A stretch of 62,298 nucleotides of DNA from an uncultured cyanobacterium (GTDB taxonomy: Bacteria > Cyanobacteriota > Cyanobacteriia > Cyanobacteriales > CAWCAG01), in NCBI GenBank assembly GCA_963793425.1, contig CAWCAG010000002.1:1-62298 (forward strand), in the 5' to 3' direction. This document shows positions 17,149-23,417 of the stretch, piece after piece. The notes below the pieces were generated by a model. It had not been told where the DNA came from, did not search any database, and saw nothing but the letters and a program-made list of their open reading frames with translations. Made by a program: the position numbers and the translations under genes. Numbering within the stretch: the first letter of the stretch is position 1; every line of letters begins with the position of its first letter.

Positions 17149-20100
17149 TTAAGTAGGGGCCTTAATTGCCGCGACCCATTGAGCAATCATCGCTTGTTTA
17201 GCTTTCTCTAATAGCTTTGTCGCTTGGCTTATCAGGTGGGCGCTGATGCCCTCTAGTAGTTTGCCTGCGGGGTAAAAAATCTCTCGGAAATCTTCAAAGG
17301 ATTTAATGTGGTTGAGAATATCTGCCGCATCTTCAAGCTCTTCTATTGGTATGGGGGGTGGTATTCGACTAGCAATTAATTGGAAATCAGGACAAGACTG
17401 GGATACCTTATCCTCAATTCTCCGGGTGACGCATTCGTAAACAACCGACTCAATAGAGTCTGGCTCATGTCTAATCGAATATGTTCTTTCCCCTTTAAAT
17501 TTGCGCTTGTGAATTTTAAACCCAAGCATCCGAATAGCTCTATTAAGATATTGAACTGGTGTGCATTTACCAACTTTGATTTTGAGCCTTCGCCAGTTCT
17601 TTTTACCTTGCCTCCAGAAATTAATCACTCTTTGGTCAATCTGACTCCAAGAGGTTCCCTCCTCCAAAAAGTCTTTGATGCCCATTTCGATGAGGGTTTT
17701 AACAAACAGAGTCTTGGACTTAAATTCAGTTGGGGAAACCCCTAAACCGTAACCACTCTTTTCTGGGTCAGTAAAGAAATCGAACTTCTTAAAGAATTTC
17801 TGTCTGTCCAACTGAAGGGCTATTTCTGGGTTATTAACGAAGAATTTGAGTTCTTGTTTAGAGATAACTCTTTTGCGCCTGTCTTCAAGTAACCTGACGG
17901 TTTCAGGAGAAAAAGCAGGGATTTCAACCTGAACCTCTTTCTCTTCTACTTCTCCTGTCTTCTCGTTGGTAGCCTCAACAGTCTCACTAACAACGATAGT
18001 TTTCTCTTCAATTCCCGGCAGTCTATCTAAGAGCCTACGCTTTTTAACAGCAGCTTTTTGTTCGACTGTGGCCGATACATCACGAGAAATTTCATCGGCT
18101 CTCTTGGTGGTGATGTTCTCAGCATGGAACTCTTGAGTAGCCTTAGCTTGTTCTACTGCTTCAATCTCTTCAGTTATACCTTTACTAATCTCGTTGTATT
18201 TCTGGACAACAACGTCGGTAACAGGGTAGCCTGAGTCTTCTAGAGCGTAGCGTAGACATCGTTTCAGGTTTTGGCGTTCGTAATTCTCAGTGGCTCTAAG
18301 TTGGCATTCGTAGGCGTAAAACTCATCATCATGAAGTTTCATCATCTGTTGCATGAGCTTGAGGTATTGTTCTTTAGCCTCCACGCCATCTAGTACAGAT
18401 TCACCATTGAGAATGGCGTATTCTTCCCAAGCTTTTTTGATTTCATCAGGAATGAAAGAATCGGATACCTCGTCGTTGCTAACTGCCCTGGTCGCAGGTA
18501 CGACGATAAGGGTCGCGTCTTTGTCTCTAACCCTAGCAATTAACTGCATCTGCTGGTTAGTCGAAAGTACGCCATAAAACAGGGCATATATTTCACTAAA
18601 ATAGCCCTTAATATCAACGTTTAAGCCAGCTTCACCAGTAGGAGAATACAAGAGAATTTGTATCCTATGCTTAACCAGATAACCGGGACTATCGGCATAA
18701 AATTGGGCAGCTTCGGATGTCCCCGCTTTAGTTGAGTCGAGTCGGAAGGTTCTTAGCCCCCTAGCTTTAAGTTTGTTGTCAAGAGCTTCTAGCTCCTTTC
18801 GGCTGTCACTACAAACAGCAATATTGACCCCTTCTGGGAGATTGAGAATGGCTTGTTCGACTTCGCTTTTATCCGGTTCTACTATTTCCCCGTTCTCATT
18901 TCTGCTGGCTGTGATGAATTTGGTTTCTGGTCTGTGGGCAGTAAAGGTATTTTCTGTAACTGACACACTAGCCTCACTGCCAAGGACGGAGCGAAGTAAT
19001 TTGACTTCTTTGTCGGTTAGATGACCATCAAGGCAATATATTTTTGAGGTTCTTGTTAATGCTTCACTCAGAAGTCTTTTGACCTTGGACTTAAACCGAA
19101 GATTTTTGTCCTTGGCCAAAGAGCGTAAGACACTAACGGTTTCATCTAGAACGAGAATCCTCTCATCAAAATCTTCAGAGGAAAAATGGGGAATTGAATG
19201 CAGGCAAAGAGCGATACAGCTTTTGGGGTCATGAATGAGGGCGTATTCATCCTGGTTTTTTAATTCCGATTGGAGATGATAGAAGCCCGATTCAAGACAA
19301 AATTGCAGCAGCGGCCCATTTCTGTAACCAATACTTAAAACTCCTTTACCAGGGTTCTCCTTAATAATTCTTTTTATTTCATGAGTTTTACCTGTACCAG
19401 TGCCAGATTTAACAGCAATGGCTTTGGCTTCAGTTGAGGAGGAGATATCAACAAAACGTTGATTCTGCTTGATGTCAGGGGACAGCCGACGAGATTTAAC
19501 CCACCTATCCCAGTCATCAATCTTTTTCTTCTCCTGGTGAGACAGTCGATAAAACTCTTCCGGGGATAGGTACTCAATTGGTTGCCCCGGCTCGATTTCA
19601 TCAATATCTTGCCCTGTTTCTTTATCAACTTGTCCCCACCAGGCAATTTGAACTTCTAAGCCTTGGTCTTGGATAAAGTTAATCTGGCGGCCCCAGCGCT
19701 TCATAACATGGGGATTAATAATATCTCCGGCATCAGGCATGAGGATGGCAAGATCATAACCAGCCGTAGCCGCTTTAACTTGTTCAGGGGAACTAGTAAA
19801 TAATCCTCCCGCCGCGCCTATGCAATCGATACCTAGTCGAGCCGAAACAATGTATGGCTTGAGGATTCCTTCACAAAGACTGACTACTCTGAGGGTCGGT
19901 AGGGTTCTATCTCCAGTGGATCTATCCCCATCGCCGTTAGGACATCCCAACCGTACCTGGCTACTTTCTCTATCTTGGGGCTGATAAACACTGTTTTGAT
20001 TCCGAAAAACACGTACGGTGGGGGTTCTGTCTCTAACCGCTTCAATACTCTGGCTTCGTAGGTCTTGTACTCCATTCCTCTGACTGGAGTTTCTCTCAAC

Positions 20101-20873
20101 GACTCCATTTCCATCTGGTCTATTTCGTCCCAGTACCTTCTTTCTCTTTTCTCTCTTTTCTGCCTGCTTTTGCTCCCCATCAGGTTCAACTCCTTTAACA
20201 AATGTTATTGGCAATTCGCCATTCTTGAGATGACTAGATTTTAAACCCTTAGCCCATCGGTACTTACCACTTTTTGTAGCACCATCTACCCTGATTTGCC
20301 ACCCTATGGCTCCACCCTTATGGTCAAAGGCTACACAAGCATAGCCAGAAACTTGAGAAAGAAGCTTTCCTCCATATCCCACCCCAGGAAGGTTGGTAGG
20401 GATATCGGCAGGTAACATAGCATGGGGAGAAATCGAGAAAAATAGCCCTTCTGTTATCTGAATATTGGTTAAGCCACGACGCTTTAAATCCTCCCTATGG
20501 CTAGAATTAAGTCCTAATACCTGGGCTATTTTCCTAATAGCTTTGTCCCGCTCAGGAGCTGATAATGCCTCCTGGTATTGACGGCGTTTGTCAGCTTCTC
20601 GCTTGGCTCTTAATTGCTGCTGCTGTCTAATCCAGAGTTCTTTGGGCAACCAGTCTTTGGCTTCTGTGGGTGGGGCATAAACTCCCCAGATACCAGAGGG
20701 GCGGCTTTTTTAAATTCATAGCCAGGGGCATCAACACCGCCATCTATGTATGTGTGGCAAAGGATTAAATCATCTTCACCGTGGCGACAATCGCCGGAGA
20801 TGTCAGAGCAGATGGGGCAAGGATTTGCTCTGTTGGTAGGAGTTCGTTTTGCTTGTCTGGTAAATGTGTTCAT
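17149..20873 (-). CDS. Large cyanobacterial plasmid replication protein (Zn-finger, Toprim-like primase, SF2-type helicase; CyRepA1-like) with an apparent 1-nt frameshift near 20700
   Basis: CPIC...C...CH zinc finger in ORF 20610-20873 continues in -1 frame as SGIWGVY...LPKELWIR (ORF 17149-20649); CEGILKP, PDAGD, SGTGTGKT, LVLDE motifs. Confidence 0.85.
19884..20180 (-). CDS. Putative 98-aa gene nested out of frame inside rep
   Basis: AAAGGAG 9 nt before ATG 20180; MGSKSRQKREK...PYRPSE* coincides with a low-complexity stretch of the Rep frame. Confidence 0.6.
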   Translation of the reverse strand: MGSKSRQKREKRERRYWDEIDQMEMESLRETPVRGMEYKTYEARVLKRLETEPPPYVFFGIKTVFISPKIEKVARYGWDVLTAMGIDPLEIEPYRPSE

Positions 20874-21935: not shown

Positions 21936-22196
21936 TTACTTTTTGTCCTTCTTAACTTTTCTCTGCTCAACCATTACTTTGAAAGCCTCTGCTTTATTAA
22001 GCTTTTCTAGCTGCATAAATAGTCCATCGCTTATACATTGAGCAGCTATAGAGCTTTGCGATTTACCACTCTCCTCCACTACTAGTTGTAATAGCTCGTA
22101 ATCATGGTCAGCTAATGTCACTGTAATTTGCTTTGGCATATTTCTATATTCATATATACACTCCCTATCATCAACTTTTAACTTATCTATCATCAA
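21936..22196 (-). CDS. CopG/ribbon-helix-helix-like regulator (likely start MPKQITVTL)
   Basis: KQITVTL strand, DHDYELLQLVVEESG helix, SQSSIAAQCI helix. Confidence 0.65.
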   Translation of the reverse strand: MMIDKLKVDDRECIYEYRNMPKQITVTLADHDYELLQLVVEESGKSQSSIAAQCISDGLFMQLEKLNKAEAFKVMVEQRKVKKDKK

Positions 22197-23246: not shown

Positions 23247-23417
23247 ATGCCTCGCCGAAGAGATAATCCCAAGTTTACCCAGGTCAGTGGCTACATTCAA
23301 AAAGAATTAGCCATCAGCTTTAAAATAGCTTGCCAATCATTGGGGTTGAGCTTCGCACAAGGAATCGAACAGTCAATAAAACTATGGCTCAAGCAACAAA
23401 AAAAAGAAAACCAGTAA
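23247..23417 (+). CDS. 56-aa ribbon-helix-helix-like protein (not in ORF track)
   Basis: AAGGA RBS; MPRRRDNPKFTQVSGYIQKELAISFKIACQSLGLSFAQGIEQSIKLWLKQQKKENQ*. Confidence 0.7.
   Translation: MPRRRDNPKFTQVSGYIQKELAISFKIACQSLGLSFAQGIEQSIKLWLKQQKKENQ

Follow-up and report, generated by a model that had tools for sequence, protein, structure and literature searches.

Can a plasmid replication gene hold a second gene, read from the same strand in another frame? This question is raised by a stretch of 62,298 nucleotides (nt) from an uncultured cyanobacterium (GTDB lineage Bacteria; Cyanobacteriota; Cyanobacteriia; Cyanobacteriales; CAWCAG01; GenBank assembly GCA_963793425.1, contig CAWCAG010000002.1, positions 1 to 62,298 of the forward strand), which we refer to as the window. 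It encodes a replication protein, Rep, with a large insert in one of its linkers, and an open reading frame (ORF) of 98 codons lies out of frame inside this insert. The evidence favours, with a probability of about 0.55, a maintained dual-coding gene within a gene: Rep would read the insert as a spacer, and internal initiation would yield a small basic protein. Selection on both frames and internal initiation are the parts of this reading that we infer. The features concerned are the following.

17149..20649, minus strand: main Rep ORF, 1166 amino acids (aa) from a TTG start; a CyRepA1 family replication protein (primase-like plus superfamily 2 (SF2) helicase) that hosts the overlap
19873..20185, minus strand: insert proper, 313 nt, in place of which a related insert-less Rep contig has 67 other nt
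19884..20180, minus strand: nested ORF, 98 codons and TAG, in the +1 frame relative to Rep; predicted small basic protein of a two-member orphan family
20190..20196, minus strand: Shine-Dalgarno-like AAAGGAG, 9 nt before the nested ATG, within the Rep codons V-K-G-V

An insert in the linker of Rep

Membership of Rep in the CyRepA1 family is supported by NCBIfam model NF042913, which scores 304.2 bits over residues 409-1049 (cutoff 200). Invariant residues of Rep are E260, G261, K264, P265 and D306. Three of them, E260, G261 and D306, which we take to be Toprim motifs, flank the site of the insert.

Between ...NGELPITFVKG and VVSLCEGILKP, the Rep frame holds 103 aa rich in R, V, G, Q, D, S and N. 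The commonest residues are R16, V10, G9, Q9, D8, S8 and N7, and hydrophobic residues account for 19/99 of the stretch as against 33% across the rest of Rep. The original prediction, made from the letters of the window, had described an off-frame-looking stretch of about 100 aa between NGELPITFVK and VSLCEGILKP, a 98-aa ORF with matching boundaries in another frame of the same strand, and AAAGGAG 9 nt before its ATG. All are present as described: the stretch with its 103 aa on the minus strand, the ORF at 19884..20180 and the motif at 20196..20190. Its suggestion that Rep homologues lack the stretch also proved right when linkers were surveyed. From the homologue search, 121 Rep proteins of at least 600 aa were taken, and both flanking motifs were matched in 103 of them. 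The linker measures 15-17 aa in 97/103; lengths of 29, 31, 45 and 77 aa occur once each, and a linker of 111 aa is confined, among these 103, to the window's own two forms. The 18 Reps outside the motif expression, judged by eye, are canonical-looking save P0024 (~35 aa). Alignment to CyRepA1-type homologues, which the original prediction had proposed, confirms an insert of ~96 aa.

The insert is missing from the close relatives P0004 and P0129 (N-terminal domain 91-92% identical) and P0005 (78%), the last being the product of another contig in the window's own genome. Rep paralogues on contigs C3 and C4 of this genome align to the window up to ~20204, and then again from ~19793. In metagenome contig X5 the joint is 19872|20186, with 67 letters replacing 19873-20185; in record 3 of X1 it is 19835|20178, with 96 letters replacing 19836-20177. 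No plasmid of the 52 in PLSDB with a match to the Rep N-terminal part covers the insert, and in the host genome it occurs once, with no second copy found. A GTDB contig scan with the insert-less P0004 returned just one distant Rep, and no close Rep was found in the same-genus and same-family genomes. Together, these comparisons indicate that the window's Rep carries a real insert of about 96 aa.

X1, a sediment metagenome, holds an identical insert-bearing contig (depth ~31) beside a related insert-less Rep contig (depth ~10), so both forms co-occur in one sample. Throughout the Rep family, insertions and deletions concentrate in the linker that precedes the invariant Glu. Unrelated extra segments of ~14-30 aa are found there in P0004 (29-aa linker), P0017 (31), P0024 (~35) and P0010 (45, Arg/Pro-rich), and P0004 and P0129 share one 90% cluster, yet their linkers measure 29 and 16 aa, respectively.

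Two kinds of mobile element were considered as the source of the insert and rejected. Inteins are marked by Cys or Ser as first residue, by His-Asn followed by Cys, Ser or Thr at the end, and by a Hint domain; here the junctions read ...GVEPDGEQ and ...TLRVVSLCEG, there is no Pfam match, and the ~96 aa are predicted to be disordered. As to a miniature inverted-repeat transposable element or an insertion sequence, the genome holds no other copy, and no convincing terminal inverted or direct repeats were found (best pair 17 nt, 71%).

The nested frame and its free-standing paralogue

The nested ORF runs from ATG (20180..20178) to TAG (19886..19884), wholly within the Rep ORF and on the same strand. 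A six-frame search of its own genome retrieved one relative, a 108-aa ORF at G000:C6:45304-45630 (E 1.3e-8 genome-wide). This stand-alone homologue, of the kind that the original prediction had proposed to look for, is free-standing, does not lie within any longer ORF, and is annotated as a gene in public records. The two proteins share about 33-35% identity over residues 3-92 (BLASTP, composition-adjusted statistics). The C6 paralogue starts at the equivalent residue, with its own start and a longer C-terminus; its last ~10 C-terminal residues are absent from the nested protein. Its contig has no CyRepA-type Rep, and no Rep remnants are found near it. This match argues for a real but very small protein family to which the product of the nested frame belongs.

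How small this family is follows from a series of searches. A two-sequence profile run against 1.84 billion representative proteins gave 1 match, the C6 paralogue itself, and the nested ORF, in its ATG or TTG form, is absent from a collection of 15 billion proteins. In six-frame searches with the family profile, 0/400 phylum-sampled and 0/60 related genomes gave a match. The 400 order-sampled genomes gave 5 weak ones (E 0.001-0.009), judged to be chance; one of them sits in frame in an unrelated 502-aa membrane-protein ORF. These 860 cyanobacterial genomes in total contain no credible further member. PLSDB gave no match by tblastn with both members, and neither the nested protein nor the Rep-frame insert matched anything in word-indexed protein searches. 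JGI metagenomes, scanned with the family profile and also with P0006, yielded no confirmed match, and the IMG/VR scan yielded none.

Start signals of the nested ORF

The nested protein is homologous to the paralogue from residue ~3-4 to some 6 residues short of its stop, and this stop adjoins the point where Rep homology resumes. Insert-less Rep paralogues read GTAGGAGAA at the position of AAAGGAG. P0004, which is without the window's insert, also reads VKGV, and V-K-G-V-x-x-D is common to both. One insert-less contig aligns to the window through 20178. By these alignments GGAG is Rep's own sequence, and so, very likely, is the ATG. The insert may have given the gene body, with Rep providing the initiation signals and perhaps the stop. 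RNA structure near the nested start is not notable (z -0.81).

Openness and composition of the two frames

Both frames are open well beyond chance. With the Rep-frame codons held, the nested frame was open in 0.09% of 50000 synonymous-codon permutations. With the nested protein held and codons drawn from genome usage, the Rep frame was open in 0/20000 resamplings, which gave a mean of 10.3 stops where 0 are observed. When 2755 windows of 98 codons were taken from real genes of the genome, 1 had no stop in the equivalent frame; the C6 paralogue itself has 5 stops in the Rep-equivalent frame.

The stop-free state of the Rep frame is due to a T-poor composition. At nested third positions, which are Rep first positions, T occurs in 6/98, compared with 37.5% on average in the genome and at least 12% in every real window.

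Codon log-likelihoods were computed for all three frames. Real genes score -3.89 in frame and -4.87 and -5.11 out of frame. In the insert, the third frame scores -5.20, and the Rep frame, which had been taken for an ordinary off-frame, scores slightly better than the nested frame (-4.15 vs -4.38), so that this view of it does not hold. Both frames are thus intermediate, as shared coding would give, and both look constrained.

Predicted structures of the two readings

AlphaFold models were obtained for the nested protein (two sequences; mean predicted local distance difference test (pLDDT) score 69.8, predicted template modelling score 0.56) and for whole Rep (37 sequences; pLDDT 83.6). The nested protein is modelled as a long basic N-terminal helix followed by a helix, a hairpin, a helix and a strand. 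In Rep, one segment stands out.

19897..20139, minus strand: the insert as read in the Rep frame, residues 171-251; predicted to be disordered, with means of 10-residue blocks at pLDDT 24-36

This is the only long Rep segment with pLDDT below 50. The insert projects from the fold as a loop, with strand 149-151 on one side and, on the other, strand 255-260, which leads into the invariant E260-G261. The models thus suggest a folded nested reading and a Rep reading that serves as disordered spacer at an indel-tolerant site.

Diverged copies of the insert

The nested ORF might be no gene at present. A fragment of a small gene may have lodged in a permissive loop of Rep, with the Rep frame alone selected and the nested ORF left as an untranslated relic, open through youth or luck. 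Several facts suit such a relic: start signals that belong to Rep and were not imported, the loss of the ~10 C-terminal residues of the paralogue, nearest Rep relatives without the insert, a linker hot spot that also takes unrelated inserts of 14-30 aa, and a codon co-conservation test (given below) without significance. We nevertheless consider it unlikely, owing to two diverged copies of the insert and to the stop content of the family. A typical member would bring ~5-10 stops in the Rep frame, so simple pasting of such a gene would have killed Rep.

The first copy is P0006, a Rep from an unrelated assembly, whose flanks are 73% and 54% identical to those of the window and which has a 77-aa linker at the same site. 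For P0006 the best +1 reading permitted by the Rep-frame residues was derived; first and third bases of +1 codons are nearly fixed by these residues, and the second is free within synonymous choices. This reading resembles the nested protein with z 6.0-6.6, a value reached by 0/300 shuffles and 0/1500 real 77-aa Rep windows. It also resembles the C6 paralogue (z 3.2-3.7; reached by 1/300 shuffles and 5/1500 real windows), an independent target, since the paralogue shares no DNA history with the window's Rep. Controls with the +2 frame and with a reversed target gave z of at most 1.8. The same degenerate-frame test on other long linkers was null for P0010 and P0004, and z 1.96 for P0017 is not credible after multiple tests.

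The P0006 match is ungapped and runs from just after PIT in P0006 onto nested residues 28-98. In that register Rep-frame identity is 12/71, and 30/71 nested residues could be kept. Bases that definitely differ from the window occur at 42 nested third positions and 35 nested first positions. Smith-Waterman comparison of the two inserts in the Rep frame gave z 2.4 (P 0.03).

Neutral decay was simulated in 600 runs, in which the window insert, with only Rep-frame stops barred, was brought to the divergence of P0006 (~58% inferred nucleotide divergence). The simulated similarity score was 124 +/- 20 (maximum 174) vs 179 observed, which was reached in 0/600 runs; kept nested residues averaged 23.4 vs 30 observed (P 0.022), and the nested frame acquired 3.4 stops on average. 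The similarity of the P0006 +1 reading thus exceeds what this simulation of neutral decay predicts. A family-like reading at such divergence, which neutral decay would erase, is hard to reconcile with an untranslated relic, and so is its match to the C6 paralogue, which is independent of window DNA.

The second copy, marine-metagenome contig X6, spans 19916-20193 with 26 differences in 278 nt (9.4%; 91% identical). In the adjacent Rep N-terminal domain there are 32 differences in 250 nt (12.8%), and Rep third positions hold 7 of the 11 listed among these 32. The insert is therefore evolving no faster than its constrained flank, which also speaks against a relic. Indirectly, P0006 and X6 point to maintenance by selection.

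Origin of the nested ORF

The nested ORF may owe its origin either to capture or to birth in place. In the latter case, extra linker would have come first, the +1 ORF would have arisen inside it by overprinting with use of Rep's GGAG and ATG, and the C6 gene would be a later escaped copy whose composition has relaxed part of the way towards that of the genome. Being a matter of origin, this account could hold alongside dual coding today. It agrees with Rep-native start signals and with the orphan state of the family (1 match in 1.84e9 representatives, 0 credible in 860 cyanobacterial genomes). The C6 copy is also low in T at third codon positions (22%, the 1.6th percentile of chromosomal windows), and its 5 stops in the Rep-equivalent frame compare with 10.5 expected (P 0.012, resampling). 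However, 5 stops or fewer are also found in 12% of chromosomal and 7% of plasmid real gene windows, which makes the C6 count unremarkable. Moreover, the C6 copy has its own start, a longer C-terminus and no Rep remnants nearby, and the 96 extra codons would still need a source. Finally, identity is 33% between the nested and C6 proteins but 78-91% in the flank between insert-bearing and insert-less Reps, which suggests that the family predates the insert. On balance, birth in place appears improbable.

Least probable by far, and rejected here, is a frameshift product in the manner of prfB, where the programmed +1 site is an in-frame stop or hungry codon with a Shine-Dalgarno-like element a few nt upstream: Rep ribosomes would slip +1 near GGAG to give a fusion in which the nested peptide follows a shortened N-terminal domain of Rep, a product that the Shine-Dalgarno-like AAAGGAG inside coding sequence just upstream would suit, but the site has no Rep-frame stop or obvious hungry codon, the nested frame is already closed upstream by the TAA at 20207..20205, so that a shift would have to fall within the 9 codons from there to the ATG, an ATG properly spaced from GGAG is the simpler account, and the paralogue begins at the equivalent residue as a free-standing gene.

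A dual-coding model

The favoured reading, dual coding maintained by selection, can be put as follows. A segment of ~290 nt with the coding body of a small protein would occupy the naturally variable linker that immediately precedes the first strand of the Toprim-related core in a CyRepA1-type Rep. In the Rep frame, ribosomes would read it as a hydrophilic, disordered spacer of ~96 aa outside the fold, so that Rep stays intact. In the nested frame, an internal start on the rep mRNA at AAAGGAG-N9-ATG would give a 98-aa basic alpha/beta protein. Selection would keep both readings, and two or more diverged Rep lineages would have inherited the arrangement or repeatedly re-created it. As to function, the basic N-terminal helix of the nested protein and its position hint at a protein that binds nucleic acid or assists Rep; our guess, of low confidence, is a small protein of this kind that takes part in plasmid maintenance and whose synthesis is tied to rep mRNA.

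Several observations weigh against this model. Close relatives and the intact paralogue of Rep work without the insert, and the window's own Rep copy carries an upstream 1-nt frameshift absent from other copies. The five near-identical Reps of the window's 90% cluster show no variation in the insert. The P0006 +1 reading is an upper bound, as it was inferred from the Rep protein sequence, and conserved bases pair up within nested codons, as opposed to Rep codons, slightly more often than expected but not significantly so (17 vs 15.0 expected, P 0.24). When the insert's own T-poor codon set is permuted, the Rep frame is open in 35% of cases, so the signal lies in global composition and not in site-by-site avoidance; foreign origin could in principle explain such composition. 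The nested protein has no family in Pfam, NCBIfam, PHROGs or PADLOC, and its predicted fold gave a best E of 3.7 in Foldseek against PDB and nothing usable in ESM Atlas. No promoter-like site was found on the minus strand from the rep promoter region to the nested ORF, so the nested protein, if made, comes from rep mRNA. Among the sequencing runs listed there is no RNA run carrying the sequence.

The original prediction had spoken of a complete captured gene with both frames kept open for dual coding. Of the former claim, the insert and the family member stand; the wording is too strong, because AAAGGAG and probably the ATG lie in sequence common to insert-less Reps, and the C-terminus is shorter than that of the paralogue. 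Of the latter, openness beyond chance is upheld, and the signs of selection, from P0006 and X6, are indirect. It had also named a replication regulator as a possible role, for which neither family, fold nor gene context yielded a clue.

A broader proposal can be offered tentatively, and we hold it to be somewhat doubtful. The insert might be a heritable gene-in-gene module that lies out of frame in Reps, borrows their ribosome-binding site and start codon, forces a disordered spacer upon them, and has been doubly selected through the deep divergence of the window and P0006 lineages. It would possibly move between Reps at one site, and the paralogue would show that its protein works alone.

Other features of Rep and of the two loci

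Further Rep sequence lies upstream of the main ORF.

20610..20873, minus strand: N-terminal Cys-rich part of Rep, an 87-aa ORF that, in this assembly, one missing nt near 20701 separates from the main ORF

One extra base is present behind 20701 in the near-identical metagenome contigs X1 (depth 66/66) and X5. P0003 holds the same N-terminal sequence within a single frame, and P0003 and P0126 are intact, with 1241-1242 aa. The missing base near 20701 may be either an assembly error or a strain-specific frameshift.

Foldseek search with the Rep model gave the origin-binding helicase of herpes simplex virus 1 as top match (E 7e-15), and SF2 helicases were also matched. Pfam search gave no DUF3854 match in the window's Rep, nor in the insert-less P0005 and P0116.

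The genome contains three related CyRepA1-type Rep genes, on three plasmid-sized contigs: that of the window, C3 and C4. The one at G000:C3:66140-69574 is intact, without the insert and 78% identical to the window's, and that at G000:C4:858-4259 has decayed and contains several stops. The genome also has more remote Rep-like matches, at C3:82086-85477 and C9:278699-279850. The window's Rep and P0004 are 91% identical in the N-terminal domain and only 41% in the helicase part, whereas P0005 is 78% and 80% identical to it, respectively. Such uneven identities make the Rep genes mosaic and imply recombination between them.

Small ORFs lie beside rep, at 21936-22196 (minus strand) and 23247-23417 (plus strand); these may be plasmid partition or regulator genes. 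The latter has weak ParG and ribbon-helix-helix matches (E 0.006-0.008, below cutoffs).

Neighbours of the C6 paralogue (G000:C6:43210-53733) include a split DDE transposase on one side. On the other side, by labels taken from reading the sequences, there are fragments resembling Cas2 and Cas1, together with one TnpB-like and one reverse-transcriptase-like ORF. Genes around the paralogue and around rep gave no clue to the function of the nested protein.

Comparison with known systems

CyRepA1 (Slr7037 of pSYSA) and CyRepA2 are described, in the parts of the source available, as having an N-terminal DUF3854 (Toprim-related) region and a C-terminal DEXDc helicase (PMC10079941). The window's Rep is a member of this family by its NCBIfam match. 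It differs in its linker, which is canonically 15-17 aa; the portions of PMC10079941 at hand mention no insert or nested ORF. A literature search on CyRepA1 and on overlapping or overprinted genes in plasmid replication proteins found no such case, which is not proof that none exists.

According to the available excerpts on plasmid pIGRK, two in-frame Rep proteins are made from it (PMC6854812). As in the window, its rep locus gives more than one protein from overlapping coding sequence; by these excerpts its products share one frame, whereas the window's frames differ and the proposed proteins are unrelated. Embedded genes of Escherichia coli O157:H7 (nog1, ano and pop) are, in the sections of the reports available, antisense, mostly orphan, and supported by RNA-seq and Ribo-seq (PMC4683798, PMC5960689, PMC7103648). 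Like these, as far as those sections describe them, the nested ORF is a long ORF inside an annotated bacterial gene, of the kind discarded by annotation pipelines, and it is also missing from the protein collection searched. Unlike them, it is same-strand, is supported by a paralogue and by comparative signals, and is known from sequence alone.

We regard the nested ORF as a rare, well-supported candidate for a bacterial gene within a gene. Most bacterial candidates are orphans without a homologue, so that coding cannot be argued from their sequence. With a free-standing paralogue and the putative second nested copy in P0006, the present claim becomes testable by ordinary comparative and bench methods. 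The locus would offer a natural example of two proteins sharing DNA, one predicted to be folded and the other to be a disordered, stop-free, hydrophilic spacer in an insertion-tolerant loop. Should the protein act on replication or on maintenance of the plasmid, the CyRepA replicons, which are under development as cyanobacterial vectors, would have a new accessory.

Long same-strand nested genes are textbook matter in small phages and viruses. To our knowledge, they are almost never accepted in bacteria and plasmids, where annotation pipelines remove them by rule. In phage phiX174, gene B lies inside gene A and gene E inside gene D. Like the nested ORF, gene B is small and is enclosed entirely by a gene for a replication initiator, with which it shares the strand but not the frame; the phage protein is made by internal initiation on the same mRNA. 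In contrast to the phage, the host gene here is a bacterial plasmid primase-helicase Rep, the overlap falls in an insert missing from most homologues, and the predicted nested protein has a paralogue encoded on its own elsewhere in the genome. In geminiviruses, the AC4/C4 ORF is embedded in the Rep (AC1/C1) ORF. There, too, Rep harbours an out-of-frame ORF for a protein of about 100 aa, and one reading is more constrained than the other. AC4, however, belongs to a eukaryotic virus and is thought to be overprinted within conserved Rep sequence, whereas here the Rep reading is probably a dispensable disordered spacer; we know of no free-standing copy of AC4. If the module tentatively proposed above is real, it would be the bacterial plasmid counterpart of phiX174 B-in-A or of geminivirus AC4-in-Rep, but reached via insertion of, or escape to, an independent gene.

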